DNA of 63,998 bases, filler included, from Basidiobolus ranarum (taxonomy: Eukaryota), in the NCBI GenBank assembly GCA_040143965.1. It is 9 parts of 9 records of this genome, joined end to end, with 100 filler letters (N's around TTAATTAATTAA, not from the genome) between each part and the next. Parts side by side here need not be neighbours in the genome. Positions count along the whole stretch, not along the records: positions 35,883 to 42,938 come from JASJQH010001186.1; 8 more parts are not named here. One strand, given 5' to 3'. The notes beneath the pieces are model-generated. The model searched no databases, was not told the origin of the DNA, and saw only the letters and a list, made by a program, of their open reading frames with translations. Each line of letters begins with the position of its first letter. Positions within the stretch are counted from its first letter, which is position 1. The translations under genes were made by a program, and so were the position numbers. Shown piece after piece: positions 5,866 through 63,670 of the stretch.

Positions 5866-7093
5866 TTGTCTGCAAATGTTGCAAGAAACATGGCCACATA
5901 CTCATGGATTGCAGAAAAATGATTGTTGCCAAAAAGCTAAAATTGGAACAAGCAAATCAAGTAAGCACTGTCAGGGATCATCTATTTGAGTCTGCCCAAT
6001 CAGTACCCACTAAGGAAGACTCAGATGTTTGGTACATTGATTCAGAAGCTATTCAACCAATGTCAAACAAGAAGATTGGTTTTCCAGCTTAAAACCTATC
6101 TAAACAAGGAAAGTCTACTCCAGTAATGACTTTGCCCTAGATATAGTAGGGAAAGGCACAGTGGAGCTCTATTTAGACTATATTTCAGCTACACCATCAG
6201 CAAAATTGGAAGATGTACTCTATGTACCAAATACAGCCAAGAATTTACACTCAGAAAGTCAAGCAACAACTCAAAGACCAAAGGTTGCATTCAACAGGCT
6301 GGATGCACTAGCATAGATCAGAATAATACCAAATTAGCTACGGCAATCAAAACTCAAACTCATACAAGCTAGAAGTCAACAAGTTTCATTCAAGCATGCA
6401 AACATGGTCAAAACCAGTCAGAAAGTCTGTTAAACATGGCATAGAAGATTAGGTCACATTGGAGAATATAAACTGACACAAATGATCTGAAATCAGCTGG
6501 TGTCGGGCCGAGATATGGATAATATCACTAAATTGGATATGTGTGAAGGTTGCATATTTGGAAAGTGTCACAAACAGCCATTTTGAAGCTGGGGAGAGAT
6601 TAAATCCATTCATAATTTTGCACCTGTGCCTTCTGACCTAGGTAGCCCCATGAAAAATTTCTCACTTGGTGGCAAAAGGTACTTTATGATCTGTATCAAT
6701 GAAAAAACAAGATACACCTGGATATTCTTTCTCCAATCAGAATCTGAAGCGTTAGCTACACTTAAGCACTACAAAGCAATGGTAGACAAAGAATCAGCAC
6801 AAAAAACAATGGTACTATGGAGTGACAATGGTGGAGGACACTGCTCTAAAGACATAGCTAGTTTCTTTTCTGAAAATGGAATTGAGCAATAGGAAGACCA
6901 TAGTGGAGATGGCAAGATCAATGTTACATGATCAAAAGTTAGATTACCAAGATTGAGCTGAATATGTCTCCACTGCAATCCATGTCAAGAACAGATGCCA
7001 AACAAGATTACTACAAAATTCTACTCCTTTTGAAGCCCTGTATGGATCAAAACCAAGTGTGAATCATTGCAGGATCTTTGATTGCACAGCATC
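5866..7093 (+). mobile_element. Degenerate Ty1/Copia gag-pol (CCHC knuckle, protease, integrase), cut by contig end
   Basis: CKCCKKHGHILMDC zinc knuckle; WYIDSEA protease; WHRRLGHIG; CEGCIFGK; RYFMICINEKTRYTW...WSDNGGG integrase core; many stops and frameshifts. Confidence 0.85.
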
Positions 7094-7193
7094 NNNNNNN
7101 NNNNNNNNNNNNNNNNNNNNNNNNNNNNNNNNNNNNNTTAATTAATTAANNNNNNNNNNNNNNNNNNNNNNNNNNNNNNNNNNNNNNNNNNNN
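7094..7193. other. Artificial contig linker N44-TTAATTAATTAA-N44; also at 14274-14373, 21451-21550, 28623-28722, 35783-35882, 42939-43038, 50088-50187 and 57232-57331
   Basis: Identical 100-bp spacer with stops in all six frames; intervening segments shrink steadily (7080, 7077, 7072, 7060, 7056, 7049, 7044 bp). Confidence 0.97.
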
Positions 7194-14273: not shown

Positions 14274-16853
14274 NNNNNNNNNNNNNNNNNNNNNNNNNNN
14301 NNNNNNNNNNNNNNNNNTTAATTAATTAANNNNNNNNNNNNNNNNNNNNNNNNNNNNNNNNNNNNNNNNNNNNACTAGCTATTTCCCTTTACAGGATTCA
14401 ATTATGTCTATTTACTATCAGTTTAATTTTAATGAATCTGATATCAACTTGGTGAGCGAAATTCCGGGGAATTTTCCGTTACTAGGTACAATTTCTACTA
14501 CCCATTGGAACTACTTAATTTCGATGGTAATTTATCGTCATACACCACCCCCTCTCTCAGTAGCCAATAGTCAGCAATAAGGTAATGATCTTCTGCGAAA
14601 TTCCGGAATACAGTAAGAAAGGCAATTAACTATGCGAATCTCCAAGCATCCTTTCAAGCAGTTGGTGATTGCGGTACCAAGGTGGTTTTCAATAAAGAAA
14701 TACTTGTGATAGCTGATCTTCCGTATGGCATGATGAATAACGTATCATTTCGGCTTGAGATTTGGGCTTGAAAAGTGATGGAATATATACACCCAATGGT
14801 GATAGGAATTTTGACGGTTCTTCAATCTTTAGTCATGGGTTTGATAACAACGTTGATTGTCGTAAATGAAACAAAGTGGGCGCTAGTGGAAAAAAGATGA
14901 CGAAAACAATATTTGTACCATAACGATTCTTAGTCATTGTGCACTCGATCATTAAGCATTTCTATCATTCTTGTTTCCCAAATGTCTAAATAAAACGAGC
15001 TCAAAAAGCCTACAGGTGTCAAATTCATGCAGTCCGGAGAAGTATCTCCACCTAGATATTAGCAATGGCAACATTTTTTGAACATCACGATCATTAAATA
15101 AATGGATGGTTAGTGTTAGTACTCTGACATGAGCGATGAATCAAGTTTGATTGGAGCACCATCTACAAATCTGTATATGACTAAGAAGCATTCGGTCGGA
15201 AATTCGGATTCCGATATCTTATGCGAAAACTGGTAACCTCACTTCAATCAGACTGAGTCAATATGCATTCGAAAAGTCTAATTTACAGTAATGATCTTTT
15301 ATGTACGGATGCCATGTTGCTGATAGGCATAAAATCAATGTACATAGAATGTCTACATGGCAGTCAAGTAATACAGAAGATGCAGGCTTTGGGCCCAATG
15401 GAAAGGAAATCCAAGGCACGGATCTTCAAACATTTGCTCCGCAATGAGGCATATATCTCAGTTGAGATCCAACATCATCCGGACAAACTCAACTCTTTGG
15501 CAAGTACCCCAAAGAATGTCCTCCTCTCACGGTATCGGAGAGAGTTAGCAATACGAAGGAAAGGAAAGCCACTATGAGATCTGATACCAAGCCAAATGTC
15601 AGTCTTCTTAGCATTGTACTTGATACATTTGTAGGGCAACATATGCGATAGCTCTAACACTAGGTGGAGTTAATCGAGCAGGTTAGTCACACCAGGGTTG
15701 CTGTAGAAGACTAGACACTACCGGGATCATCACCCCATTACTTGCGCTATTCTCTAGAATCCACTTAGCTCCATCACGACGTTGTTGCATTTGTCTACGG
15801 ATCCAGTAACGGAAATTACTTTGCCAGTTAGTTTTGAAGAAGCCTTTGATTCTTAAAGTGTTAGAAATCAAGATTGAGACTGCATGGGCAATGGCAGTTC
15901 TGAGGCATGCATAGTACAATGCAGTGCAGTGTAATGTATCAAATACTCTGGTCTATCAACATTGATGAATGTTTATTCCAACTGATTGCTTGTAGAGTTG
16001 ATATCAGGGCCGCAACGTGGCACACTGCTCATCGGCTTCACTCATCTCTAATGAATTCGCGAGAAGCCCCTACCATATCCAAATTGGGAGGTCAGGGAGA
16101 CTTGACCCTAAACTAAAAATGACTGGAATGAGCTGAGATGTGACGACGAATCATTTATACTTCTGATATCAGGTTGGGAATATATTCGATGACAGCTTAT
16201 TTTGAACAATTAATGGCCAAGGCCTATTTATGGACACAAAGCGCTTGCCTCTTTTGTCAGCCGTCAGTTAAACTTCTCCAATTAATAGTGTGCACATTTA
16301 TTGTTAGAATAAGTTCGAGTCCGCAGCGTCTGATCTGTGACGAATCTGGCATAGAAGCCTTAGATACAAGTAGATGAATCACATGTAAGATAAGGGTTAG
16401 TAGGGCATTTATAACGTAACGATCGCATTCTCTTCTATATTTGGAGTATATTCTGCATATAAGCAGGGAGAACATATGAGTGATTTTCCTTAACTCATCA
16501 ATATTACTATACAGCGCTGTGGAAATGAAAAGTTGGTGATAATTAACTGATCACTTCATACAAATTGAAAATAGGATGCCATCCTGAGGTGATTAGTCTG
16601 ATCTGGCGCTTGTTAGGTTTCCGCAGGCTCAAACGTATGCTCATTCCGGAATTATTACTCTTGAGCAAATATATATATACTTCCATTCAATCACTCGTCA
16701 CAATATCTCCGATCCCTTGGCCTAACGTTGCTATCCCTTTCTTTCAATTCTTAGTTGGTTGCATCGTGCACGTATATTAAACGAGACTCCTCTTATACTG
16801 CTTATTAGGCATCGGCTAATCATCTCCAAATTACACCGTCGCGTGGAAAAATA

Positions 16854-21450: not shown

Positions 21451-21550
21451 NNNNNNNNNNNNNNNNNNNNNNNNNNNNNNNNNNNNNNNNNNNNTTAATT
21501 AATTAANNNNNNNNNNNNNNNNNNNNNNNNNNNNNNNNNNNNNNNNNNNN

Positions 21551-28622: not shown

Positions 28623-28875
28623 NNNNNNNNNNNNNNNNNNNNNNNNNNNNNNNNNNNNNNNNNNNNTTAATTAATTAANNNNNNNNNNNNNNNNNNNNNN
28701 NNNNNNNNNNNNNNNNNNNNNNACATATGAACAAGACTACATCAATTTTTTTCTTCCAAAGTACTTTGAATATACAAAAGATTTACGTATGAAAGTGGAG
28801 TATGTTATAGTGAATATGATAAGGGTTTCATGACTGAAAATTCATACTATTCTGCTTAGAGTTATGTAGGAAGGT

Positions 28876-34016: not shown

Positions 34017-35205
34017 TTAATTACTTTTGACCTTGTGACAGAAAGGATAGTCAGTGTAGCCCTCAGCTTCACCAGAGTAGAAAGTAGATCTGTCATATTT
34101 GTTGAGTTCCCATCCATTGCGAAGACGTTCAGGAAGATCAGGATTAGCAATAAAGGCACGGCCATATGCAATCAAATCACCAGTACGCTTGGCAATATCA
34201 GCAGCAGTCTTTATGGCATTGGAGAAGCCAGAGGAAGAAATAAATGGTCCCTTCCAGATTTCACGGAAAGGTTGCAAAGTATCTTCAACTTCAGCGGAAT
34301 CACTCATAATGTTGGCACGAGCTTCGATAAAATGAAGATAAGCTAAACTGGGGTGGTTCTTTTGGAGTTGTTCAGTCAAGTAAGACCAGGTCTTGACAGG
34401 ATTTTCGTCAGCCATGCCTTGGAAAGCTCCGCCAGGAGAGAAGCGGATGGCAGTACGTTCAGCACCAACAGCATTGACAACAGCATCAACGACTTCCAAA
34501 GCAAAACGACCACGGTTTTCGACTGACCCACCATACTCATCAGTTCTATTGTTACTACTAGTGTTGATGAACTGGTCAATAAGATATCCGTTAGCTCCGT
34601 GGATTTCAACACCATCAAAACCGGCTTCAACGGCGTACTTGGCAGCACGTGCATATTGCTCAACAATCTTCTTGATTTCTTCAACTGTAAGGGCGTGAGG
34701 TTCTTCGTAATCATCTCCTGCCATGGTCTTACCCGGGCAGACAATAGAAGAAGCGCCAACAATTTGCTCTTGGTTAGGGTTTAAGTACTTGGAACCAACG
34801 CGGCCTATGTTATTTTAAGAATCCCAATTTTTTTGGTTAATAAAATCCACTTAATTTTTACCCACTTCTATCCATCTAGTACTTACCAAGATGCCATAAT
34901 TGGGCAAAAATATACCCATTTTTTTCGTGCACTGCAGCAGTGACCTTCTTCCAGCCTTCAACTTGTTCATCATTGTAAAGACCAGGAGTACGAGGATAGC
35001 CACCTGCTAATCTATCGATAACAGTAGCTTCCGTGATCAAAAGACCACCATCTGAAGATCTTTGCTTGTAATATTCAACTTGGAGAGCAGTTGGAACAGC
35101 TTCGAGAGTTGCTCTAAGCCTTGTCAAAGGAGCCAAGACAACTCTGTGTTTGAGTTCGTTGTTACCAACTTTGATTGGTGAAAATAAGGCTCTTTGAGTG
35201 TTCAT
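34017..35205 (-). CDS. Old yellow enzyme (NADH:flavin oxidoreductase), 2 exons (34887-35205, 34017-34804)
   Basis: LFSPIKVG...HRVVLAPLTR; QLWHLGR; AGFDGVEIHGANGYLIDQF; YGRAFIANPDL; GYTDYP. Confidence 0.95.
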
Positions 35206-36955
35206 ATTTGCTTTTAGAATCTAGAAAAAAGTTAAAGGAATAATAAAAAATCATTCAATTTGGCCTTGTATTTATACAAACCGTAAATATCAAATACTTA
35301 ATAATCACATTTATTACGTAAAATATGAGCTGACAAACTATTCTAGATCGAAGTTGATTTGTAAGCAAAAGAAATGTTGAAATATCTAGCAACAATATAA
35401 TACGCCAGGATTTAACAATCCACCGGCATAATTATCTTTGCGGTTATCCGAATTGATTATATCCCATTCATTAAAAATATCTAAATTAGCATCAATCATC
35501 AAAAAGAGCCGATCATTATGCAAAATATCTAAGATATAGAAAGCCATTCGTAGTACATAAGTTCATCGCATCCAGAATATAGGCTTGAAAGACGGCCTGC
35601 TGGTATTAAATTAGTCTTCAACTTCTATATCTGTTCTTGTCTGATCTTAAAGTATGAGTAATTACAGATGGAGCAGCGGTTACTGTGATTTCATTATGCA
35701 AAATATGAATCTGTTGGGAGAAGCCCAAAGTGAATAGATATAGGATATACTGTCATTATATGATTACCAGTAAAGCTTTCTANNNNNNNNNNNNNNNNNN
35801 NNNNNNNNNNNNNNNNNNNNNNNNNNTTAATTAATTAANNNNNNNNNNNNNNNNNNNNNNNNNNNNNNNNNNNNNNNNNNNNCCCCCTCCCTCTTCCGGC
35901 CACATCTACTTTTTAGTCGCATCTGGGTTACCAATGTTAAACAAGAATATGTGGTAGGATTACTCTATTCAGCTCTTACCTCGCTTGTGAATATTCATTT
36001 CGCCTTGTAGATCAATCAAATCTGATGAGAAGTTGAAATGCGTAACAACTCTTAATATTTGGGAGTGTTTCCGTGGGAGATTACTTGAGTAGGTTCGGTA
36101 CACAGTCTCAAAATCATCAAGCGTGTTTCCCTTGCATGGAGTCCAATATATGACGAAAACACAATCTTATACACGAATGAACGCTTTCTGTAGCCGATTC
36201 AACGGTCAAGGTTAAGGCTAGAGTAAGACTGGGAGGACTTTAACTTGATGGACGAAGGTCAATGCTTTTGAAATTCTTTGTGGATATAAGAATCAATGTA
36301 GTTTATCCGAAACTAATTTGACTTTCTTTCGTTTCCTTTACTACGAATCCCCTTAAAGATTATCAAATATGTATACAGAGTAACAGAAAGGTCACAGGAG
36401 GAAGAATCTTTCTTTTTAGGAATGAACTGGGTTTCGACTGATGTAGTGAATTTTTCCATCTGGGTAGATATCTCAACCTAGTATGGCATATACCCCAAAG
36501 GTGAATACCGCAAAGGTAATTATTACTCAACTCTTGGACTACAAGTGTATGCAGCTGAGGAGTAAAAACTCTTTATTAATGCTGTCCTATTTCTATTAAA
36601 GACCATTATCTAAGACCGTTTCCTTATTTTATTCATTTTGCTTTTTACTTTGGTTTCTGAACGACCAGAAGTCTAACTATGATGACCAATAATGTGGCGT
36701 GAATAGTGATGGCGACATTTGTCCCTTGCTATAGAGGTTCGTAAAATCTTCAGTGTTCTGTTATTAGTTAGACTGAATTTTGGCATGGGGTCATCAGAGG
36801 GGGGTATTTCGGGTACAACATATAATCCATTCGTCGCTAAATGGGTTAGTTTATTCAAACTATTAACATACAGTTACCCAAAAATCCAAACCTTTTATAC
36901 AAGAAAACCCCTTTCTCATTATCATTACTCTACTTAGTAAACAGTCAAACTAATA

Positions 36956-37923
36956 ATGACAAATACCCTGGTCGCTTGGGATTTTGACTGGAGTTTGTTC
37001 GAAGAAAACTCTGATACTATCATTTTTAAACGTTTATCACCAACACTTTATCAGAAACAAAAGGAGCGAGCTGGAAAGGAACAATGGACCGATTTGATGG
37101 TAAATATTCCTGAAAGATTTTCAAGTTTTCTATTGAACTAAGAGCAACCTCCTCTCTCATATAAGGCTTCCTTGTTAGTAGATTTACATAAAGAAGGAGT
37201 TTCACAGGAGCAGTTGGAGAATTTCTTAAGTCAATTGAAATTGGTAGCTGAATTTTACATCACCATATAACTTCAAGTTCGACGTGGTTAAATAGGTATT
37301 TTTTAACCTCAAGGAACCTGAGATGATACAGTCGGTACTTCTATCTCAGAACAAAGGAGCTCAGCATATCATTCTATCCGACTCCAACACAGTGTTTATC
37401 GATAGGTCTTTAAAGGTTCGTTCATTTCTTATGAACTTTGAAGCCATTCGAAAATATAACTCTTACTGTTACAGGCTTCCGGTGTATTAGACTCATTTGA
37501 ACTCATTCGGACTAATCCCGCTCAATTCGATGCCAATGGGTGTTTACGAGTAACTCGTTTAACAAACCAAAATGAACCACATATGTGCCCACTTTGTAAT
37601 GTTAATATATGTAAAGGTAAAGAGATGAAGAATTATCTTGCGGGTAAAGAAGAATTTGATAGAATCATTTATATTGGTGATTCCAAGAATGACCTTTGTC
37701 CTAGCTTGTTATTAAGAAGGTAATTTTGGTGGGAGATGATACTAGTGAATATGCTAACATATACTAACCATGTTGTAGTCAGGATATTGTGTTGGCCAGA
37801 TCTGGTTTTTCGTTGGTACCTTTGTTAATGACTGCCCAAAAGGAACACCTGCTAGCAGCTCAGGTGATTGAGTGGAGTGATCCAAAGCATATACTGGTGT
37901 TGTTCAAACAGTTGTTTGAGTGA
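36956..37923 (+). CDS. PHOSPHO1/PHOSPHO2-like HAD phosphatase (multi-exon)
   Basis: WDFDWSL (DxD), ILSDSNTVFI, TNPA.FD, C.VNICKG, IYIGDSKNDLCP. Confidence 0.88.
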
Positions 37924-38487
37924 GAAATCATCTGCTGAGTAGAAATAAGCAATTAGAAACTCTGAGTGATCTCTAGTCACTGTCTAATAAAAATGATATC
38001 CAAATAATGTATAATGCTTTGTATAAATTGAAATTGCACAATGAAAATTCAAGTAGTGAGAATATGTAATTTTGTTAGCAGCGTGACTTGTAGTTATATT
38101 TGTAATTTAGTGGCAGTGATGAGCATGATGGCCTTGAGTATATATGGTGTTAATCCCATTCACTAACGCTCTTTGTGGACTAGATTTATCGTAACTTGGC
38201 CTATTTACAATAGGCTAGAACTGCTCAAAGTAGACTGTTACATTTCACTTAGTAATGTCCTTGTAACGCCTCCTATTACGAATCATGCTCTTAATAAGGT
38301 GAGACTGATTTGGATTACAAATTCAGAAAATAGTTTGATGCTCTAGAAATTCTTCGGGCTAAGGTTTTGGGGGAGGTGGATGGAGATCATTTAAACAAAG
38401 TGATTTGGGGGAGGTTAGGAGAGAGGGAAAAATTTAGATTAAATTAAACTTCAGTCAGAAATATCATTTTCGTAAAGTTTGAACAAT

Positions 38488-39765
38488 ATGTTGGCTGGAA
38501 GTAAGTTCCCTCTCTTTCTAAAAGTTACTTCCTTTCAATGTGTAACCATTTCCCTCCATAGTCAAGAATAGTTTTGGTATCACTAAAAGGGCTGCTAATG
38601 CCTGGAACTCAGTATGTCGATTTTAATGCCGAGCTGTGATTGTAGTACAGGAATTAAACGTATCCATTTTTTCGTAGCGTGTAGGATCCGTCGCTCTTAC
38701 TTCTAGACTTCAGGCTAGAAACCCTCGCGTACTATCAAGGTTCTATAGTGTTAACAAGGAAACTGTCGCTAGAGATCGCTCTACTCTTGGTGTAAGTGAA
38801 ATTGATTTTGTTTGCTCAAACACCTTATCAATAGATATGTATATATACACGTGTACATATGCTAACCAATATAAAACTATCCTACCTAGACATTTACTTG
38901 GAAGAGCGCGGCGTTGTTCTTGACCACGGGTGCCGGTTTATTTTATTATTTCAGCTTAGAAAAGGCAAAGATGAAAGAAGCACAAAGTAGGTTAAATGGA
39001 GAATTTTCCAGTCTCTATTAACTGGCTTTTCTCCGCAAACAAGAAAATGTTGGACTAACATTATTGTGAAATCTTCTCTGGTTTAGAGAAAGTTGTAGGT
39101 GAAAACAAATATTATGGAAAACCTAAGCTTGGTGGACCTTTTGAATTGGTTGATCAGAATGGAAAGGCAGTTACGGATCAAGATTTCGCAGGTCGTTATA
39201 TGTTGGTATATTTCGGATTCACTCACTGTCCCGATATCTGCCCAGACGAGCTTGATAAAATTGGAGAAGTCATCGATGCATTAGGTAAATCATTTATGAT
39301 TCAATTGCTTGAAGAGGTAACTAACCTTTCTTCGATTTATACAGACGCAGACAAGTCGGTTAAGGAGGAGATCGTTCCAATCTTCATTACTTGTGATCCA
39401 CAACGTGATACTGTCGATAAAATCAAAGAATATGTTAAAGGTATACAATTGCTTTATGTATTTCTCAAAAGATGAAGAAACCCGGATTAATGTTGTGATT
39501 CGTGTCCCTAGACTTCCACCCTAAGCTCATCGGTATGACTGGAAACTTTGATCAAGTCAAAAAGGTCGCTAAAGCATACCGTGTTTACTTCAGTATGCCA
39601 CCTAATGTTCAAGAGGGTGAAGATTATCTCGTCGATCACTCGATTTTCTTCTACTTAATGGGTCCCGATGGTAAATTCATCGACTGTTATGGTAAAGAAA
39701 GCACTGCCGAAAGAGTTACTGTACAGATCAAAAAGCATATCGAAGAATATCGCTCATCTCATTAA
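38488..39765 (+). CDS. SCO1: Mitochondrial copper chaperone Sco1/Sco2 (multi-exon; start approximate)
   Basis: GKPKLGGPFEL; YFGFTHCPDICPDEL (CxxxC); DFHPKLIG.TG; DYLVDHSIFFYLM. Confidence 0.95.
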
Positions 39766-40079
39766 ATGCTCTGAATAAGTCAACCGCATCTAGCATTAGA
39801 ATTTTTGTCTTCTATATACGCTCATTTCTCATCAACTGGCTTAGTTTGGTACCTGTGGTGATATGTGATCAATAAATCAGTCAAGTATGCGATATACTCG
39901 ATGCATTGCTAAATGTGTGGAGGATTGGAAGATGTAAGCTAACCCTGAGGATTATGTGCAACCTTAGGCTTCCACATTATATAAATAATTGTAGGCGCAT
40001 TTGTTTTAATGCTCATGTTACGTCATGTTATGATGCTTTATTTCTCCATGGAATCAAGTAATTCACCATTCGAATGCAG

Positions 40080-41579
40080 TTATGTAGTATACTTTAGGAT
40101 TGCATCCGTGAAGTCTTTCAAGCCTTGCTTTGAAGAGCCACCTTCTTTAACCGCCTTTTTCACTAGATTTCTAAGTTGTTCCATTTGTTTTGCTATCGCT
40201 TGCCCTTCATTGGAATAGAATCGATCAATTACATGACTGATTACCGTTGCATCAGCAATTCCATTTTCATCTTTCTCAACTTCTATAGCAACGTGTAAAC
40301 CATCCACCAGAAATCTGGTATTTAATTTCTGCTCCGCAAAGCAAGGCCATGCAATTAGAGGTTTTCCTAGTGAGATGGCCTCAATAGAAGAACCCCAACC
40401 ACAGTGAGTAAGGAAAACACGAACAGCACGATGCGCAAGAACTTTAGGCTGAGGTGACCAACTAACAATAAGGCCCTGCTCTTTCGTATCCTTAAGGAAA
40501 TTTTCAGGGAGTGATGAAGTACAGCCTTCAGGTTGACGTAGCACCCAGAGAAAACGTCGGTTTGTAGAGAGAAGTGCTTGGGCTAAATGATGTATTTGGG
40601 GTTCAGAAAGAACTGCAACGCTCCCAAATGAGATATATATTACTGAGCCCTAGAATGATATTAAATAAATATGGTTCGGTTATTTTCTGATGTTTACAAT
40701 GGGTACTATTTGAGACGCGATACTTACTTCTTCTTGGGTATCTAGCCAGTTCAAACACTGTTCTTCCTCAGAACCGTTTTCGGTATTGCTTATGTTATTA
40801 GCAGAGACACTCCGTTTATCTTGATCAAAAAAGTTCGCCGATAACATGGGCCCTACGGTCCAAATTGGTACACCTTGAGCTTGTAAAACCTCCCCAGATC
40901 TTATAGAGTCAATCACATCTTTTTCCAGTTCATATACGGTATTGCAAATAATTCCTGCCGCATCTTTAACACGCGCTGAGTGTCTCAAAAAATAACCAAA
41001 CATATACTTTGAAGAATCTTGTAAATGAGATGGCAAATCAGAAAGTCTCAGCTCTTTTGGAAAGCCTGAGATATTTATGAGTTTTTTCGACGACGGGGAG
41101 AGGTAGCCATCTTTATGAAAATCTTCTAGTTGAAACATTATTGATAGTAGAGAAGCAGGAGGAGTATAAAAGATGAATCTAGGAACGCTATGACGATCGG
41201 CGATATCCTGAGCCCAACCAAGGAAAGTGTCTGTAATAATAGCTACTAACTTCTTCTTTTCCGATAACTCTATTACCAAATTCTCTAGCCCTTGAGCTAA
41301 AACTGGACCTTCAGTAGCCTCTGCGAGCCTGGGCAGATTATCAGTGCCACCTTCGCCTTCCGGAAGCCCTTCACTAAGACCAACTATCTTGACATCTGCA
41401 ACAAGGTGTGAATGTTCTTTGGCGAGTATCTGTTTTGCACGTGATAGGTAATAAGTTGTAGTCACAAATGTAATTTCAAATGTTGAAAATAAAGCGGAAG
41501 CCAAATGAAGAGCAGGTGTGATGTGGCCCAGAGCGGGGAACGGGAAAATAATGAGATGGGGACGGGAAGTAGCTGCCAT
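40080..41579 (-). CDS. Plant-type family 1 UDP-glycosyltransferase, 2 exons (40728-41579, 40080-40649)
   Basis: PFPALGHITP catalytic His; CLNWLDTQEE/GSVIYISFGS; full PSPG box WSPQPKVLAHRAVRVFLTHCGWGSSIEAISLGKPLIAWPCFAEQ; AVKEGGSS; GTAAGT...CTAG intron. Confidence 0.93.
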
Positions 41580-41750
41580 GATAAATAAATGATATATCAC
41601 GTTGTAACAATGGCACTTATAGTATAATTTATACTTGGACTGTTGAGTTCTCGACACAACCAGATTGTGTTTTACAAACATATATAGATTTTGTAGAAAT
41701 TGATTGGTTATTGCTACGCACACGGGAAAGACTGTGTATGTAACGTAATG

Positions 41751-41766
41751 CTGCGGATGTCCGCAG
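41751..41766. promoter_or_regulatory. Perfect inverted repeat CTGCGGA-TG-TCCGCAG (CGG-N4-CCG) in the bidirectional UGT/DUF1772 intergenic region
   Basis: Palindrome seen directly; CGG-Nx-CCG is the typical Zn2Cys6 site geometry. Confidence 0.45.
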
Positions 41767-41850
41767 GTTTAACGACTTGTTTGAAATCGACTGTATATAT
41801 ATGTCAGGAGTACTAGTGATAAGAAATTAAACTCGCACCACTACAACACC

Positions 41851-42318
41851 ATGAATACTAACTTTGATGCTATCAATTTTCTTCATGTTATCAAAGCAGT
41901 TAGCGTAACTTCTTCAGGCCTTTTTGCTGGCGCAGCGATATACATTACCTATGTGCAACACCCTGCTCTTATGACCGCCTCGCCTAGGGAAATGGTAAAT
42001 CAATTTCAAGTGTTCTACCCTCGAGCAGCCAAATTACAAGCCACTTTAGCGCTCACCGCCATGGTTGGTTCAGCTGGAGCAGCTTATCTCACTGAACGTC
42101 AAATCTATATAATCCCATCTGTTCTATTTGCAACAGTTGTAGGATACACACTCTTGAGCATCAAAAAGATCAATACTCGACTATTGACCATGAAAAAAGA
42201 AGACCCTAGTCCTAATGTTCAGCAACTTATTAAAACTTGGGGCAGAAAGCATTTCGTTAGATCAGTATTATCTTCGGTCGGATTCGGTGTATTGATTTAT
42301 GATGTATTCCGTCGTTAG
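41851..42318 (+). CDS. DUF1772 / anthrone oxygenase-like membrane protein
   Basis: GLFAGAAIYITYVQHPA; four hydrophobic helices; IN.RL...W...HFVRS C-terminal motif. Confidence 0.8.
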   Translation: MNTNFDAINFLHVIKAVSVTSSGLFAGAAIYITYVQHPALMTASPREMVNQFQVFYPRAAKLQATLALTAMVGSAGAAYLTERQIYIIPSVLFATVVGYTLLSIKKINTRLLTMKKEDPSPNVQQLIKTWGRKHFVRSVLSSVGFGVLIYDVFRR

Positions 42319-43038
42319 ATTATTATTCAAAAATTTTGTCGACTAGTTAATAAAGTAAACTCTGATTCTACTTTAGTCAAAAATAAACGATGTCCTTTTC
42401 CGAGCTAGCTTTAATCTGGTAGCGTGGTTACAGAGGGCATTTGCAACAAAGGTGATGGAGTTAATGCAAACACCAATTGTCACTTGGGATTTAAGCGTAT
42501 GGAATTGTTATTAGAGTGAATAAAGATATTCAGACAAAAGTAGAGAACGGTGAAAGATAGAACTTCAGTAACCTTTCGTGTCAGCCTCTATCAGCAATTC
42601 CATTGCTTTCTGACCATATATTAGAAATTATTCCATAAGCATGAAATTCATATTTACGTAGTTCGATAAAGGCAGTCAAGATGCCACATTTTCTAGCCTG
42701 AATCGCGATAAGAAATAGGATTGATGATGACGGCCCTATCGCGATGGATCATAATATATTGCACTAAAGATAGTTGAAGATTCATCTACAGAATAGCTTT
42801 GCCTTTTTTGTAGATTTCAGTTAGGGTTTAGGGTTAGGGGGGATGAAAAGCACCAGATGGTGTAGACTTTATTTAGCTTAAATACTAATCTAAACAAAGT
42901 GACAATCAAGACATCAATCTTTTGAGATATTGTGACAANNNNNNNNNNNNNNNNNNNNNNNNNNNNNNNNNNNNNNNNNNNNTTAATTAATTAANNNNNN
43001 NNNNNNNNNNNNNNNNNNNNNNNNNNNNNNNNNNNNNN

Positions 43039-50087: not shown

Positions 50088-51396
50088 NNNNNNNNNNNNN
50101 NNNNNNNNNNNNNNNNNNNNNNNNNNNNNNNTTAATTAATTAANNNNNNNNNNNNNNNNNNNNNNNNNNNNNNNNNNNNNNNNNNNNATTCCTGCCGGAT
50201 TTGGGAGTGTGCTAATTTCGAAACATGTATATAACACTGATGGTCCGTTTCCGATGTCTTGTAACTTTTGTCTCCGCGGTCGGTTCGTTTTAAAATTTAT
50301 ACCTGAAGTAGAATAATAACAGGGAATAATATCCCTAAAGTTTAGTAATGATTTGTCCAGTAGTTCTGGAGATATTTGCATTTCTTTGCTTGTTTCGGTG
50401 ATTGTGAGACGTGTAGGAAAGGTGTAGATATGAAACTGGGTGACGGGCAAGGTTTGCTTATGCGCTTTATGTGTACGAAATATTGTGTTGATTGAGACAT
50501 TATGTTGTCTCCAAATTTGCCATCGCTTTTGTCTGATAATCCAATTTCGTAACATAATCCTATTTCCTGGTTCTTCGTACCAGTAATACCCTTGCTTGTG
50601 CTTCTAGATTATCCATCTCAACGTTCAATCACTATAAGCATGCTAATAACTTACCTATCTGGATTCTTTAGTTGCATTGAAAATATAAGAGTAAGATGAA
50701 CACAATAAGCATTTATGTTGGCTTATATCGTCTCCTCTATTGATTGTTACCATTTTCCAATTCCTATATTGTCAGAATCAATATTTCAAATACAGATACA
50801 ATATTTAAGGAATAGAGGGCTTATGCGAAATTTTAAAGTAGTTGAAAACAGAAAAATTGGACAGTTAAAGTATATTTTTACAACTGTGAAAACTTGAAGA
50901 GCCAGCCTTGCTAAACATACTGTGATAATACTCGCTGTGTGTATTTTGACAAGGCAATAATGAAATTGATGAGTCTCCTGCAGGTCCAACAATAGTACAA
51001 AGATTGAGTGACGGTGCGTAACAAGATGACTATGAACAGTGTTATGGAATACAGAAGTTGTCAACCTTTCACTGTCTGAAAGCAATATCACAGTAGGTAG
51101 CATACATTAAAATACTGAAAGCTAGATATTGATTTTGTGTGAGATCACTAAGTGAATTGGCATAGAAGAAATGAATGAAAGCCTTTGAAATATGATACAA
51201 AGAGACGAATATTGTTAGCGAAGGTCAATGATATTTACTGAAGATTTATATAAAGGCAGTATAAAATTAGTAGTGGTAGATGTATAGTTCATATACTGTC
51301 ATTTAATGACCATGTCCGATGTTCAAATAAGATTCAACAAATCTCCATTTACTGTAATACTGGTAGAAAAACTCACTGCAAGAGATTAAAAAGTAG

Positions 51397-56874: not shown

Positions 56875-57681
56875 TTACTGTATTCTTCAATGCCCGATGT
56901 TGATCACCGATAAGATAGCAGTCGATGTTGACATGCACAGAAGAATAAGGGTTTTGGAAGCGCTAAGTATTTTGTAAACAATATCTTACTTTAATCTACT
57001 CAAATGTTAATTTGTTAATATATATAGGGATATATAAGTGTCTGAGAGCTTGGGTTCTTGGATTCAATCTTTGATAGTGTGTAATTTTGTATTTTGCTCT
57101 TGGTAACAACACCAGAATCTTCCTAGAATATTTACTCCAGCGAGTTATTCAATAATTTGACATACATAAATTCTCAAAGCAAGCATTAGCAATACGTTTT
57201 CATTATGACTAACTTATCTTATCTGGTGAACNNNNNNNNNNNNNNNNNNNNNNNNNNNNNNNNNNNNNNNNNNNNTTAATTAATTAANNNNNNNNNNNNN
57301 NNNNNNNNNNNNNNNNNNNNNNNNNNNNNNNATCAAAGCTTGGACTAAACTTAGGTATAGAAGTGCATAAAGTATGACATTTCAACATTTTACTATTTGT
57401 TTGTCAAGACAAATCCCGGAAGCAGTCACTACCGTGAGCAAATTTAGGATTAGCAAGATAGAATACATCCAGTCGATTTTGTGGGAAAAATAACCTGATC
57501 TGTCTACATCTAGTTTGCGCCACCTAATTTACATTCTGGGAATCAACTTGCTTAGAAAACGGATCATATTGCCTTCAGTTTTGTCGAAACTTGGGTGCTC
57601 AACTATAAAAATAGCTAGGAGAAAGCTATTCTTCTACATTTTACAATACTATTTTGAGCCCAGTATCCTTTTAAAATAATA

Positions 57682-58068
57682 ATGAAATTCGCTACATTAG
57701 CTATTGTCTCTACCATTCTTACTCTGACTGCCCAAGGTTTACCTATGGGTAAAGACATCAAAGTACTAGTGGGAGACAAGAGAGATCTACACAATCTGTG
57801 TGGCAACTGGTTCTGCGGCCACACTAAGCGTGAGGAGACAACCCCAGAAAGTCCAGTCAAATCACCAACTGATAACTCTGAGCAAGAACTTCTTACTAAT
57901 ATTGAAAAGCAAACAATTCGTGTACAACCGCTTATCACCAGCAAAAAGCGGGATCTACATGACCTTTGTGGCAGATGGTTTTGTGGGCATACAAGAAAAA
58001 GAAGCGTCATACTTCGCAACTATCTCAGATCCTCTATAGAAAAAAGTGTGTACAAGTTTAGCAGTTGA
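57682..58068 (+). CDS. Secreted Kex2-processed repeat peptide precursor, copy 1 (type A)
   Basis: Signal peptide; DKR-DLHNLCGNWFCGHT-KR ... KKR-DLHDLCGRWFCGHT-RKR. Confidence 0.92.
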   Translation: MKFATLAIVSTILTLTAQGLPMGKDIKVLVGDKRDLHNLCGNWFCGHTKREETTPESPVKSPTDNSEQELLTNIEKQTIRVQPLITSKKRDLHDLCGRWFCGHTRKRSVILRNYLRSSIEKSVYKFSS

Positions 58069-58448
58069 ATATTACTCCATCAAACTGCAGCAAAATCTGG
58101 TTCGAGCAATTGCCAACGGTTAAACCTCTTGTTTGTCGGGAAATGCGAATATACCAGTTTACGTACTATGCAAGAGTCAGTTATTTCTTCCCATTTTGTC
58201 AACAAATTTGTTGTAGTAAATTTTGAATACGCTTACTATCAAATAATTTAATAAACTATTTGCTGTTACTTATGGCATATCTAATTTGTTTTCGACTAAA
58301 AATCTTATCATCGTAGCAGATGAACCACCTATACATATTTTTAAAACCATTACTCAATATGTATCGGGTTAGAATAATCAGGATAATTATTATTGAGAGT
58401 GTATTTGGTTTTTTCGGAAATAACCCGAGATGTTGATTTATACCACTT

Positions 58449-58477
58449 AATATTCTGGGAATCCAACAACTGAGAAT
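58449..58477 (+). promoter_or_regulatory. Conserved upstream motif AATATTCTGGGAATCCAACAACTGAGAAT of the peptide genes; also at 60640, 61958 and 63356, with variants near 57533 and 59653
   Basis: Near-identical 29-mer about 290-320 bp upstream of the ATG of copies 2, 4, 5 and 6, while surrounding sequence is more diverged. Confidence 0.7.
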
Positions 58478-58740
58478 TTAGGATGAAACTGCCTCACTAA
58501 GCATCCAAATGACAGAAAGATCTCTTCAGAGATATCTCTTGACATGGAAGATATTTATCAGAATCTAGCCTAGTTTGTATAGCGTAATATTCTTGGAACG
58601 ATGTGACCGGGTATTGCTTATTGTATATAGTTAGCCTGAGAGACGACCACAATGCATATAAGTAGCTAGTAGGTAGCCGAACCATAGTGTCCAATCAATT
58701 CTCTTGCAACATCAACTTGAAATATCATTCAAATACAGCC

Positions 58741-59130
58741 ATGAAATTCATCAGTATCTTGGTAGTTTCCACTGCTCTTACTTTACTGACCGTACAAAGT
58801 TTACCTGCGGATCAGGGTTTCAAAGTTGTATCAGGAGATAAAAGAAACCTTCATGACTTGTGCGGCAGGTGGTTCTGCGGTCATACTAAACGTGAGGAAA
58901 CCTCAGTAGTTGTTCAAATCGAAACAACAAGCACTGACTCTAAAGAAATTACTTCTGCTAAAATTGAAGGGCAAACAGTACATGAACAACCATCTACCAT
59001 CAGTGACAAGCGGGATCTACACGACATATGTGGAAGGTGGTTTTGTGGGCATACAAAAATAGGAAGTACTTCTCTACGTGATAGTCTTCGGTCATTAAAA
59101 AGAAGAAGTGTAATTCTTCCCAACGTATGA
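58741..59130 (+). CDS. Secreted Kex2-processed repeat peptide precursor, copy 2 (type B)
   Basis: MKFISILVVS signal; DKR-NLHDLCGRWFCGHT-KR ... DKR-DLHDICGRWFCGHT-KIG; start placed at the MKF ATG by homology. Confidence 0.92.
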   Translation: MKFISILVVSTALTLLTVQSLPADQGFKVVSGDKRNLHDLCGRWFCGHTKREETSVVVQIETTSTDSKEITSAKIEGQTVHEQPSTISDKRDLHDICGRWFCGHTKIGSTSLRDSLRSLKRRSVILPNV

Positions 59131-59809
59131 GTTCGGTATAGTAAGGTCTGTGTAGAATACAACTCGCAACTGGCAGCCATAATAAGTATTCTCCAAAGAT
59201 TTACATGCATACTCTATGCATAGCTAAGACGGTATTACCGATACCTCACTGACGCAATATCAGGCGTTTCTAACCTTTTTGTCTATTATACTGATGTAAT
59301 TATAAACACTTTTTCCATGAACCCAACTTAGTAATATAATAAATCTCTGATGATTGTAAACACATAACACCTTATTCTTCTTGAGCCATGTCACGTATTA
59401 ATAGGTAAATAATTTTAGAAGTTATCTTGAAAAGAGCCAAATACGTCACTGAGATCTTACCATCTTACTTGGATTTTGTCTCTATCCTGGCCAATGTCGA
59501 GTATAGTTACTGTGTGAGAACAACTATGGATCATCAAAATCGAATGAATCTGCTCAATTTTATGAAAGCATCTCCAACCCTCTCCCTACTCATAATTTCC
59601 ATTTTGAGAATCAAGTCACTATCTATTTTCAGCTTGTGTTACCTAGCTTTTGTTCTGCGAATTAAGCTACTGAGAACGAAGAACTAACTTCTCATCACTC
59701 TTGCATTCGAGATATGATGGCCAAGCTATATAAGCAGTGAAAAGACAGAATGATGTTCATAATATTGTTCTGTTACAGTAGCAAGCTCAATTGTCCTTCA
59801 ATAAGAACC

Positions 59810-60175
59810 ATGAAGTTCGCATCTTTAGCCACCGCCTTTACTGTTCTTACTATGACTGCTCAAAGCTTACCTTTGGGCCAAAATGCCAAAAGCTTAACTG
59901 GAGACAAGAGGGATTTGCATGACTTGTGCGGCAGGTGGTTCTGTGGTCATACTAAACGTGAAGAAGCCTCTATAGTGGGTACAGATGAATCACCAATTAC
60001 TGACTCTGAGCTACATACTTCTATTATAATCAAGGAGAAAACAATACGAGAACAAGCATCTACCACCAGCGACAAGCGAGATTTACATGACCTGTGTGGT
60101 AGGTGGTTCTGCGGGCATACCAGGAAACGAAGTGTAATTCTTCGTAACAATCTCAGATCCGCCATAGATGTGTGA
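59810..60175 (+). CDS. Secreted Kex2-processed repeat peptide precursor, copy 3 (type A)
   Basis: MKFASLATAF signal; two DKR-DLHDLCGRWFCGHT-(KR/RKR) cores. Confidence 0.92.
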   Translation: MKFASLATAFTVLTMTAQSLPLGQNAKSLTGDKRDLHDLCGRWFCGHTKREEASIVGTDESPITDSELHTSIIIKEKTIREQASTTSDKRDLHDLCGRWFCGHTRKRSVILRNNLRSAIDV

Positions 60176-60951
60176 GTAACCTCAGACGCTGAGAAGTACA
60201 TCGTATCCTCTGATAAATCTTGTTTGATTCATTGTACACCAGTTACTTCCCAAGATGTTAGAAAGTAAATTTTGTGAGCTGATGCAGTCAATTAATAAGT
60301 AGTAGTTTTTTGTAGCAGTAAATCTGTGCTTACTCTAGTAATCATTTGTTAAACAATACCTCAGAAATTAGTATCTCTTACTCTATTGTAAACAAATATG
60401 TCATATTAAATTTTGAACCCAATAATATTATCAATTTAAAGTTTAAAGGTAAAGCGAAAGCGAAAAATTAGAAACATCACAAGATCTCTCAACTGAAATG
60501 CAAATGTAGTGCGTACAGTGATCGAATCTTTAACTGGATAGGTTGATCCAGAAATTGTCGCTTTTTTGCATCCAAAGATTGTAGTAGTCAACCTGCTTTT
60601 TCATCCTCATGTAATTTGAGATACTAGTTTGCATCACCTAATATTCCAGAAATCCAACAACTGAGAATTACTCTGTTTCATCCTATTTGTTCTAAGAAAT
60701 GCTCACTAGGCAACTAATTGACAGAGGCGTATTCTGTGGATATCTCCAGACACCATCGAGATATTCACCAGAAATGAAAATCATCTAACCTGATTTGTAT
60801 ATTCTGGGAACAACACGACTGAGCCTAACTAATGCCAAGTATTTTACCTGAGATATGACCATGGAATCATATAAATAGCTAGGTGACAGGATGATAATCT
60901 TCAATCAACTCTGTTACAACATCAGCCTCGAGTATCTTTTTATATATAGCC

Positions 60952-61335
60952 ATGAAACTCATCAACATCTTCGTAGCTTCTACTGTTCTTACTCTGGCAG
61001 TACAAAGTTTACCTGCAGATCAGGATTTCAAGGTTGTGGCAGGAGATAAAAGAGACCTTCATGACTTGTGTGGCAGATGGTTCTGCGGTCATACTAAACG
61101 TGAGGAAGTCTCTGCAGCTGCTCCAATCGAAACTATCACTAACTCTAAGCAAACGACTCTTGTAAAAACTGAAGAGCAAATAATGCATGAACAACCATCT
61201 ACCATCAGTGACAAGCGAGATTTACATGATTTATGTGGAAGGTGGTTCTGTGGTCACACCAAGAAGCGAAGCGTTTCCCTACGTGATCAGCTCAGAGCAT
61301 CAATAAGTAATGGTGTAGATTCTCTCAGTAGTTGA
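60952..61335 (+). CDS. Secreted Kex2-processed repeat peptide precursor, copy 4 (type B)
   Basis: MKLINIFVAS signal; two DKR-DLHDLCGRWFCGHT-(KR/KKR) cores. Confidence 0.92.
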   Translation: MKLINIFVASTVLTLAVQSLPADQDFKVVAGDKRDLHDLCGRWFCGHTKREEVSAAAPIETITNSKQTTLVKTEEQIMHEQPSTISDKRDLHDLCGRWFCGHTKKRSVSLRDQLRASISNGVDSLSS

Positions 61336-61629
61336 ACTCAGTACAACAAAGCCAGCGTTCCATTTAATTTAACTTATAATTAGCAGCTCTATCACCAGCA
61401 ATTTAAAGATTCACGTTCTTCATATGTCCTGTACATAACTAACAATGTACAATCAATGCTTTACTGACCTGGAGTCAGCTGTTTGTTGTCTTGATGTCAA
61501 CCAAACTGTAGTAATTTCAAATGTTTTTTTTGTGTTCAATCAAATAATTTAATAAATCTCTTATTGTTGTAAATCAGGCAAGTATTTGACTCTTACTTTG
61601 GTCGGCAATTGAAGAACGTAATATATATA

Positions 61630-61835
61630 GCTGTGGTAGGGTATAAAAACGATCTTCATGACTTGTATGGCAGATGGCTCTATGGCCACACTCTGAGTGA
61701 AGAAATATCTCCAAAGAGTCTAATCAAATCCCCAAACACTGACTCTGAATGAAGATTACTAAATTCGAGGAACAAGCAGTATATGAGCACTTACTTACTA
61801 CCAGTGACAAGCAAGGCTGCCTGATTTGTGAAGCA
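61630..61835 (+). pseudogene. Decayed peptide-precursor copy (type A-like)
   Basis: AVVGYKN-DLHDLYGRWLYGHT-LSEEISPKSLIKSPNTDSE*; no signal exon or ATG; KR sites and both Cys lost; second-core remnant after AGTGACAAGC. Confidence 0.85.
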
Positions 61836-62276
61836 GACGTCTATTTGTCAGGAAGTTAAAACCCGTTATGGAACCATTATCCAGATCAAGTAATCCGAAT
61901 ATTATCAGGGTTTACCTGCTTTTTCCCAACATAATTTGACACATCGTTATATTGCTTAATATTCTGGGAATCCAGCAACTGAGAATCTAGGACGAAACAG
62001 TGCCATCCTAGATTCTAAGAAATGTATACTATGTCAAACAGCCAGATTGCGGAGGCGTAATGTGAGAGATTTCTCTTGGGATCTTCGCCAGAATGGAGAT
62101 GGTTTGTATAGCATAATACCCTGCGAACAATGCGACTGATTATTGCAAATTCACTATTGATATGTATTTTAACTATGATATGGTCCACCAAGCCTTATAA
62201 GTAGCTAGACGATAGAACGATAGTCTACAATCTGCCCTATTGCAACATCAATTTCGAGTATCTTTCCAATACAGCC

Positions 62277-62687
62277 ATGAAATTCATTAGCATCTTTGTA
62301 GTGACTATTGTTCTTGCTCTGACTGTACAAAGTTTACCTGCAGATCAGAATTTCAAGGTTGTGGCAGGAGATAAAAGAGATCTTCATGACTTGTGCGGCA
62401 GATGGTTCTGTGGCCACACTAAACGTGAAAAAATTCCATCAACCGTTCAAATCGAGGCACCAATTACAAACTCAAATGCTAAAATTGAGGAGCAAACATT
62501 ACATGAACAACCGCTTACCGTCAGTGACAAGAGAGAATATGAACAACCATCTACCATCAGCGACAAGCGAGATCTACATGACTTATGTGGCAGATGGTTC
62601 TGTGGACACACAAAGAAAAGAAGTATTATTCTCCGTGATTATCTCAGATCTGCAATCGAAGGTATTCTACCCAATTCCAGTAGTTAA
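62277..62687 (+). CDS. Secreted Kex2-processed repeat peptide precursor, copy 5 (type B)
   Basis: MKFISIFVVT signal; two consensus cores; extra DKR site from a 36-bp internal duplication. Confidence 0.92.
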   Translation: MKFISIFVVTIVLALTVQSLPADQNFKVVAGDKRDLHDLCGRWFCGHTKREKIPSTVQIEAPITNSNAKIEEQTLHEQPLTVSDKREYEQPSTISDKRDLHDLCGRWFCGHTKKRSIILRDYLRSAIEGILPNSSS

Positions 62688-63670
62688 CTATTGTATCGTG
62701 CTGTATTGTGCAGCTGTTGCAGAATCTAGGAGAGCTCTCATCTATCTCACAACTATACTGTTTGCTGGAAGGCTGGTTTTATGAGCATATCTTCCATTTC
62801 AATTCATACTATACCTTTACTGACCTGGAGTCAGTTGCATCTTACCTTGTTTCCAAGTAATTGTAACAGTAAACTTGAGAATCTTTTTTTGTCAAACGCT
62901 TGAATAAATTGACCAGTGTTAATATTGAATCATTCGTTTGATGACTGGATATTTGAAAATTACTAGCCATTAATTATACAAAGATATTGGTTGTATCACC
63001 AAATTAATATTATCTTATCCGTGGACGAGTATTACTGATGTTTTTGGCTTCACATCAATACTGAACAACTACAAGAGTAATTCAAAAGTACCTATCACAA
63101 GCAGAAGTTACGAGGTTGTTGAAAAGAAAATAGCTTACCATCTGCTGTTTAACATTAATTCATTCACCAGCTATAGCTCTACATATTGGAATTTCAAGTC
63201 CTTATACTGATACCAATACTCTAGACATTCAAGCTGATTTAACGTTAGTATAGAAATACATTCTAATCTTCAGAGTTACTTTGACTATCGAAAGCACTGC
63301 AGAGATCAACCAGCTCTATCGTCATAAAATCGAATATATCGATTTAGTGTCACTCAATATTCTTGGAATCCATCAACTGAGAATCCAGAATGACACTGTT
63401 TCATCGTATTCCTTCTAAGAAATACTCACTAAAATCAATAAGCAACCAAATGACTAAATATCACACGGTACTAGCAAGATATTCCCTAGAATCGTCAATA
63501 TCTAGTCTGTATATCCTAAGGTTCTAGGAATAATGCGACTGAGCATCACAAATGATATGTATTTTGCTCGAGATGCGACCACTTTATTATATAAGTAGCT
63601 AGGTGGTAGAACGACAGTCTTCAATCAATTCTGTTGCAACATCAACCTCAAGTGTTATTCCAATATAATT

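Follow-up and report, generated by a model that had tools for sequence, protein, structure and literature searches.

How did a fungus come to carry a gene whose product resembles, along its whole length, the glycosyltransferases of land plants? The question is raised by a gene for a uridine diphosphate (UDP)-glycosyltransferase (UGT) that lies on the minus strand at positions 40080..41579 of a 63998-base window from Basidiobolus ranarum, the window being the whole stretch of DNA that we analyzed. Judged from its sequence, the product is a complete plant-type PSPG-box family-1 UDP-glycosyltransferase, and we are highly confident that the gene is both resident in the fungus and plant-type. The enzyme is thus of a known kind in an unexpected host, and its transfer from plants is plausible, although unproven; the reading that we favor, with a probability of roughly 0.55 for transfer and mechanism together, is an ancient streptophyte-to-fungus transfer followed by domestication and duplication in Basidiobolus. 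Plant UGTs underlie much of plant chemical diversity and of tolerance to xenobiotics, and a resident, duplicated plant-type UGT would give plant-style phase-II chemistry to a fungus of amphibian guts and litter that is occasionally a human pathogen.

Structure of the gene and its product

The gene (K7432_012893) runs from an ATG at 41579 to a stop codon at 40082..40080, all of its parts lying on the minus strand. Exon 1 (40728..41579; 852 nt, 284 codons) encodes residues 1-284, which form the linker and the N-terminal Rossmann-like domain that binds the acceptor, while exon 2 (40080..40649; 570 nt including the stop) encodes residues 285-473, the C-terminal UDP-sugar-binding domain. Between them is the sole intron, a spliceosomal one of 78 nt (40650..40727; GTAAGT...TTCTAG) with GT-AG borders and a GC content of 0.31, inserted in phase 0 between codons 284 and 285. 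The spliced product of 473 residues is identical, letter for letter, to the hypothetical protein K7432_012893 of B. ranarum at NCBI (P0003). An earlier reading made from the DNA alone, hereafter the sequence-only reading, had given exactly these outer coordinates, and the motifs that it quoted are all found in the protein, even the one encoded across the splice junction. It had also described a single short GT-AG intron like those of neighboring genes, which agrees with 78 nt here against ~60-100 nt for the introns of the adjacent SCO1 gene.

The resemblance to the UGT family is far greater than chance would give. The protein matches PF00201 (UDPGT) at 70.4 bits (cut-off 19.5, E 1.7e-19), with 69.7 bits for exon 2 alone, and phmmer searches of the PDB with the two halves separately gave E 1.8e-38 for the C-terminal half and E 2.4e-20 for the N-terminal half (residues 4-283), each of which aligns nearly end to end with solved UGT chains. 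In an alignment of 14 sequences (A1), His19 (codon 41523..41525) is invariant and Asp117 (codon 41229..41231) is at least 90% conserved, both codons having been verified in the DNA. The catalytic dyads of two plant enzymes described in the consulted portion of PMC9549646, H17/D118 and H24/D126, match this placement, and His19 and Asp117 are the predicted catalytic base and its dyad partner. The PSPG box is complete, spanning 44 residues from W348 to Q391 (40329..40460), and its alignment to the corresponding region of 8ino_A has no gaps. Within the box HCGWGS replaces HCGWNS, a variant shared by 23 of the 354 motif-bearing relatives, and the box ends in EQ, an ending as common among relatives (152/305) as DQ (149/305).

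The predicted structure tells the same story. An AlphaFold2 model built on the 14-sequence alignment (predicted local distance difference test score 89.6, predicted template modeling score 0.89) has the GT-B fold, with two Rossmann-like domains and a C-terminal helix that crosses back to the N-terminal domain, and neither a signal peptide nor a membrane helix is present in it. In a Foldseek comparison with the PDB, the matches printed were all UGT or glycosyltransferase entries, those named by organism being plants, with template modeling (TM) scores of 0.77-0.89; in the ESM Atlas the nearest clusters are exclusively Streptophyta (score 0.98), at TM 0.85-0.88 to the Atlas model. Taken together, these comparisons predict a soluble, inverting, UDP-sugar-dependent glycosyltransferase of small molecules.

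The nearest known systems are the land-plant family-1 UGTs (CAZy GT1), represented most closely by Sphagnum jensenii P0028, Ceratodon purpureus P0267-P0274 and Physcomitrium patens P0271 among mosses and by Diphasiastrum complanatum P0032 and P0284-P0286 among lycophytes. With these the Basidiobolus protein shares a collinear chain of ~470 residues, the His/Asp dyad, the 44-residue PSPG box, the GT-B fold with its returning C-terminal helix and the lack of a membrane anchor, and it diverges from the moss and lycophyte groups as far as plant groups diverge from each other. It differs from them in its fungal genome and codon usage, in an identity of 30-38%, and in belonging to a clade of its own with a chytrid protein. 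Among solved structures, the best matches in both sequence (E 1.8e-38) and fold (TM 0.77-0.89) are soluble small-molecule glucosyltransferases of plants, namely NtUGT1 (8chd), the xenobiotic N-/O-glucosyltransferase entries 2vce, 2vch and 2vg8, NbUGT72AY1 (8j2v), Phytolacca UGT2 (6jem), the Polygonum indoxyl UGT (6su6) and UGT74AN3 (8ino); they are 24-30% identical to the Basidiobolus protein.

Integration into the fungal genome

Before an origin can be discussed, it has to be asked whether the gene belongs to the fungus at all. The window is not one contig but consists of nine separate contigs joined artificially. The piece that carries the UGT (35883..42938, 7056 bp) is free of N and has precisely the length given in the protein database for the contig of P0003, and it also bears, on the plus strand, a SCO1/SenC copper-chaperone gene (38678..39765; Pfam SCO1-SenC). 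The claimed linkage of SCO1 and UGT therefore survives, since both lie on one gap-free piece. The two genes are convergent, the UGT stop codon lying 314 bp from the SCO1 end in the tail-to-tail arrangement that had been described, and the SCO1 gene is indeed intron-rich, with at least four introns of ~60-100 nt each, as read by eye; its 3' end is at 39765, while 38678 may not be its true 5' end. Thus, at the level of the assembly rather than of individual reads, the UGT is physically integrated in the fungal genome, on a gap-free contig shared with the intron-rich SCO1 gene and a phosphatase gene.

The composition of the gene points the same way. Its GC content at third codon positions (GC3) is 0.32, against 0.29-0.37 in ten other gene sets from the same and other contigs, and its relative synonymous codon usage correlates with that of the pooled remaining genes at 0.79, the highest value of the 11 gene sets. 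Short and AT-rich, its intron resembles those of its neighbors. Moreover, B. ranarum has a second, diverged copy on a separate contig of 10.7 kb, which is 74% identical over the N-terminal exon and 78% over the full length.

These observations bear directly on the possibility that the 7-kb piece, or the UGT part of it, is a contaminant or chimera derived from some other organism in the sample, whether plant, alga or something else. The UGT contig is short, the window is an artificial concatenation, and an ESM Atlas look-up of the neighboring DUF1772 gene was uninformative, returning Mollusca, Pseudomonadota and Ascomycota clusters at 0.86-0.89, all of which would leave room for such an accident. 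Against it stand the gap-free contig, a codon usage and GC3 that match not only the gene's own contig but the eight others as well, an intron of 78 nt among neighbors' introns of 60-100 nt, and the 78% paralog, which the assembly has on a different contig. Among the plant proteins of the libraries that we scanned, none exceeds ~38% identity, so no sequenced plant can have been its source. Because of the host-like codons and GC3, the short AT-rich intron, the diverged paralog elsewhere and the distance to every plant protein, contamination or a chimeric join is unlikely, a judgment made at the level of the assembly, and we regard a foreign origin of the piece itself as very improbable indeed.

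Relatives of the Basidiobolus UGT

Relatives were sought with HMMER among 1.84 billion cluster representatives, which gave 8187 matches at E<=1e-3 and 1093 at E<=1e-30; organism names came solely from word-indexed searches, and most of the best 150 representatives carry no label. A profile of 14 sequences found 115 proteins at E<=1e-20, and of the 95 that could be named by organism, 91 are from plants, two from Basidiobolus, one from Blyttiomyces and one, a weak match, from Symbiodinium. Likewise, with a profile of the four nearest unlabeled sequences, the organism-named rows among the 120 matches listed are all land plants. The N-terminal exon, used alone as a query, retrieved five proteins at E<=1e-5, which were the protein itself, its paralog, the unlabeled P0005, the Blyttiomyces protein BDK51DRAFT_43047 and one legume protein at 25% identity. 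The closest named plants, among the matches listed, are the mosses Sphagnum, Ceratodon and Physcomitrium and the lycophyte Diphasiastrum. Named plant relatives are 30-38% identical to the UGT.

In fungi, the distribution is patchy, comprising the two B. ranarum proteins and one of Blyttiomyces helicus, in libraries whose fungal coverage was not verified. Among the organism-named matches, from libraries that hold NCBI and UniRef proteins, there was no fungus other than these two species, and among the matches of the three word-indexed searches no protein was named as from another Basidiobolus species. A broad, vertically inherited fungal clade around the gene would have spoken against the transfer that the sequence-only reading proposed; no such clade appeared among the named matches, 91 of the 95 coming from plants. 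Nor did the literature yield a report of this UGT family in Basidiobolus or chytrids, the search having left aside the supplementary tables of PMC11291939, which may list it; that survey of horizontal transfer in 44 early-diverging fungi does not mention the gene in the text consulted.

A bacterial source was considered and rejected. A scan of 185,579 bacterial and archaeal species genomes for the pattern FL[TS]HCGW[NG]S matched one stretch and confirmed no relative, this being a narrow test. A plasmid collection gave six weak partial matches, 24-33% identical over 19-41% of the UGT, of which four served as the outgroup below. These four macrolide-type GT1s (plasmid genes of Streptomyces, Pseudonocardia and Clostridium; L001-L004) have the GT-B fold and a recognizable C-terminal nucleotide-sugar domain, but their tblastn matches span only that 19-41% of the UGT, and they share a mean identity of 20.8% with the Basidiobolus proteins in the trimmed alignment, and are separated from the plant-type sequences by a split supported at 97/98.

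The closest sequences beyond the paralog are the Blyttiomyces protein (P0006) and the unlabeled P0005 and P0020, at 38-42% identity in the trimmed alignment and 30-41% in pairwise BLASTP. Together with the Basidiobolus proteins they share N-terminal motifs that most plant rows do not have; in P0006 the PSPG box is missing its first Trp, and P0020 has two long insertions, which are perhaps unspliced introns. The second-ranked representative, P0008, was dropped, as its 851 residues consist of ~11 tandem copies of a single 74-residue UGT segment. It could be an artifact of gene prediction or assembly or a real plant exon array, and its high rank is misleading.

Position in the UGT phylogeny

A FastTree analysis covered 225 rows, consisting of four bacterial rows and those 221 of 262 database proteins that have 400-560 residues. 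It united the UGT, Blyttiomyces, P0005 and two moss-type rows in a clade at 95, with a lycophyte-containing clade as sister. Smaller trees of 61 rows were built from the four bacterial GT1s and 57 proteins picked by hand to represent the labeled groups and the query's nearest clades, with ~310 other proteins left out; the more careful of these was computed in IQ-TREE under LG+C20+F+G4 with posterior mean site frequencies (PMSF). In the careful tree, the two Basidiobolus proteins unite at 100/100, Blyttiomyces joins them at 99/97 and P0005/P0020 follow at 94/91, making a clade of five rows. The plant UGTs and this five-row clade are split at 97/98 from the four bacterial GT1s and one Symbiodinium protein.

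Mean identities in the trimmed alignment agree with the tree. Against the moss and lycophyte clades the Basidiobolus proteins average 33.5% and 33.7%, respectively, while moss and lycophyte share 34.7% with each other. On sequence grounds, the Basidiobolus lineage is therefore a full member of the plant-type family, as deep as the family's major groups. The phylogeny with plant and bacterial GT1s that the sequence-only reading had called for thus separates the gene firmly from bacteria, but leaves its place among the plant groups without support. Similarly, of the horizontal acquisition which that reading had proposed, the plant-likeness along the whole length of a protein encoded in a fungal genome stands, while a supported nesting inside the plants does not.

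Origin of the gene

The reading that we favor would have a small lineage, made up of the two B. ranarum paralogs, one Blyttiomyces helicus protein, P0005 and P0020, branching among the deep streptophyte UGT groups as the product of an old transfer, the donor of which could have been bryophyte-grade, lycophyte-grade or algal. After the transfer, the gene would have acquired the codon usage of its host, gained or kept one intron, and been duplicated. In terms of introns, the UGT has one and SCO1 at least four, and this low count is consistent with the gene's having arrived later, from a family poor in introns.

Several observations weigh against this reading. The maximum likelihood topology does nest the five-row clade among plants, but the branches responsible have supports of 57/71 and 53/88, and the order of the deep branches is supported below 80%, with a bootstrap correlation of 0.986 that is not quite settled. 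When the 51 plant-side rows were forced together without the five-row clade, and the two trees were compared in iqtree2 with PMSF site frequencies, the log-likelihood (lnL) was only 1.16 worse and the constraint was not rejected (approximately unbiased (AU) test 0.234, Kishino-Hasegawa test 0.253). The placement also varies with the method, falling near mosses in FastTree, with a Selaginella/fern/seed-plant group in the quick tree and in a polytomy in the careful tree. The outgroup of the 61-row trees, four distant bacterial GT1s and one dinoflagellate protein, has long branches, and the rows include no labeled UGTs of streptophyte algae or animals and no ordinary fungal ones. Further, the nearest non-self sequences, P0005 and P0020, have no organism label, and the host-like composition of the gene means that it bears no compositional trace of a foreign origin. 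The label of the Blyttiomyces protein is also less secure than that of a culture would be, since, according to the sections of PMC6784888 consulted, the genome was obtained from single cells sorted from a spruce-pollen enrichment of bog water, a sample with DNA of many non-target species, and the contaminant screens described there were bacterial and mammalian. Nevertheless, the protein is not simple pollen carry-over, given that it resembles the Basidiobolus proteins far more closely than it does any UGT of seed plants.

The tolerance of the constrained tree (delta lnL 1.16, AU 0.234) is what would be expected if the clade were a relic or sister lineage, not derived from plants but sharing with the streptophyte enzymes an ancient eukaryotic stock of UGTs, and either passed down vertically in fungi and lost in nearly all of them or standing for the kind of non-plant lineage that gave the streptophyte ancestor its UGTs. 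An identity of 30-34% between the clade and the plant groups, no different from that of the plant groups among themselves, would follow from the same history, as would the union of a chytrid and a zoopagomycete at 99/97, which old vertical descent should yield. Within the Archaeplastida, moreover, UGTs are confined to streptophytes, for which transfer from another eukaryote has been offered as one explanation in the part of PMC10513242 seen. Set against this, vertical descent would need very many losses to leave two fungal species alone among the named matches, the clade comes out nested among plant groups in all three topologies (maximum likelihood, quick and FastTree), and the UGT is intron-poor beside intron-rich neighbors. 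We consider this history unlikely, though it deserves to be taken seriously, and the rare lineage close to the origin of plant UGTs that the sequence-only reading had entertained keeps its place in view of the AU value.

A stronger form of that proposal would make the Basidiobolus/Blyttiomyces clade, with P0005 and P0020, the sister of all streptophyte UGTs and a survivor of their non-plant donor stock, so that the transfer, if any, went toward plants. This we consider improbable. If it were so, the clade would preserve a trace of the enzyme stock behind the specialized metabolism of land plants; and because it sits at the unresolved base of the UGT radiation, it is in any event useful for testing whether the UGTs of streptophytes were inherited or acquired, a question found in the portion of PMC10513242 to which we refer.

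The mutual identity of the two fungi bears on a different possibility, namely that the gene entered them separately from an unsampled donor lineage, represented by P0005 and P0020, or passed from one fungus to another. Basidiobolus and Blyttiomyces belong to different phyla, yet the 40.8% identity between their proteins is barely higher than that of the fungal proteins to P0005/P0020 (39.5% and 37.8%), which form their sister group at 94/91, and the Blyttiomyces branch in the careful tree is long (1.11). The two fungi nevertheless form a clade without P0005/P0020 at 99/97, and because of this a single entry or a fungus-to-fungus route is favored over two independent entries. Taken as a whole, an origin by such intermediary or repeated transfers seems to us rather improbable.

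The observations show the gene model, the family, the fold, the catalytic motifs, the integration into the genome and how scarce fungal relatives are. Returning to the ancient streptophyte-to-fungus transfer, the direction and age of the event, like the donor sugar and the acceptor class of the enzyme, are what we infer from the observations given here.

Predicted activity

The motifs and the fold suggest how the enzyme would work. The UDP-sugar would be bound in the C-terminal domain through the PSPG box, W348-Q391, and a small lipophilic acceptor would be held by the N-terminal domain; His19, polarized by Asp117, would then deprotonate a hydroxyl, amine or thiol of the acceptor, and the deprotonated group would attack C1 of the sugar. 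In plant UGTs, a PSPG box with a terminal Gln (Glu-Gln) denotes UDP-glucose as the donor, and since the box of the Basidiobolus protein ends in Glu-Gln, its sugar donor is most likely UDP-glucose. By analogy with the family, the activity is probably the glucosylation of phenolic or xenobiotic small molecules, which could serve the detoxification of chemicals from plant litter or the gut, or else the tailoring of fungal metabolites. As a soluble and probably promiscuous glucosyltransferase, the enzyme could also find use as a biocatalyst.

Fungi have phenolic UGTs of their own, with MhGT1, UGT58A1, UGT59A1, UGT61A1, UGT62A1 and UGT66A1 among those characterized in the consulted text of PMC10334773. 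These belong to the same superfamily (GT1, PF00201) and, going by the same source, probably do the same job, glycosylating phenolics for detoxification or tailoring. UGT58A1 and UGT59A1 are described there as membrane proteins, whereas the model of the Basidiobolus UGT has no membrane segment. Membership of one of the fungal families UGT58, 59, 61, 62 or 66 would take, by the convention of UGT nomenclature, at least 40% identity to a member, or else clustering with one. None of the characterized fungal enzymes was among the named matches, and their sequences were not compared with ours directly; it is on this absence from the matches that the view of the sequence-only reading, that typical fungal GT1 enzymes diverge from the plant pattern, would rest.

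Neighboring genes and other features of the window

Upstream of the UGT, on the plus strand of the same contig, is a gene of the Anthrone_oxy/DUF1772 type (41851..42318), a single open reading frame (ORF) for 155 residues that matches PF08592 at 44.4 bits (cut-off 27.3). The two genes are head-to-head, with 271 bp (41580-41850) between their start codons, and may share a promoter. The anthrone-oxygenase-like neighbor hints at an aromatic polyketide, such as an anthrone or anthraquinone, as the acceptor of the UGT; as no polyketide synthase is present on the 7-kb UGT contig, this acceptor is a lead only. The phosphatase gene of the contig, with at least four short exons, lies at ~36941..37923 on the plus strand and matches Put_Phosphatase (PF06888, a PHOSPHO-type HAD phosphatase) at 76.6 bits. 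An old-yellow-enzyme gene at 34017..35220 was ruled out as a neighbor of the UGT, as it sits on another contig piece.

The joints of the window were recognized from a 12-mer, TTAATTAATTAA, flanked by paired runs of 44 N and recurring about every 7.1 kb. The resulting spacers (N44 + TTAATTAATTAA + N44) are at 7094-7193, 14274-14373, 21451-21550, 28623-28722, 35783-35882, 42939-43038, 50088-50187 and 57232-57331, and the pieces between them fall slowly in length, from 7093 through 7080, 7077, 7072, 7060, 7056 and 7049 to 7044, followed by a last partial piece. Because the window is made of joined contigs, any finding of linkage that crosses one of these points is invalid. The remaining pieces hold ordinary eukaryotic genes (a protein kinase, HSF, Mak10, Coq4, GCD14 and an MFS transporter).

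Two minor features lie at opposite ends of the window. At the end of the first piece (6587-6889) is a fragment of a retroelement integrase core (rve), which at 31.5 bits falls just below the cut-off of 32.6. The last piece (57332-63998) holds a tandem array in which ~6-8 diverged copies recur every 1062-1394 nt, two of the copies being 64% identical (E 6e-70). Each copy has a small ORF, for which there was no Pfam match, with a signal-like N-terminus and an internal repeat peptide, ~DKR-D-LHDLCGRWFCGHTK, flanked by dibasic KR. From its sequence, each resembles a precursor whose repeat peptides would be released by Kex2, perhaps similar to ribosomally synthesized and post-translationally modified peptides or to pheromones.

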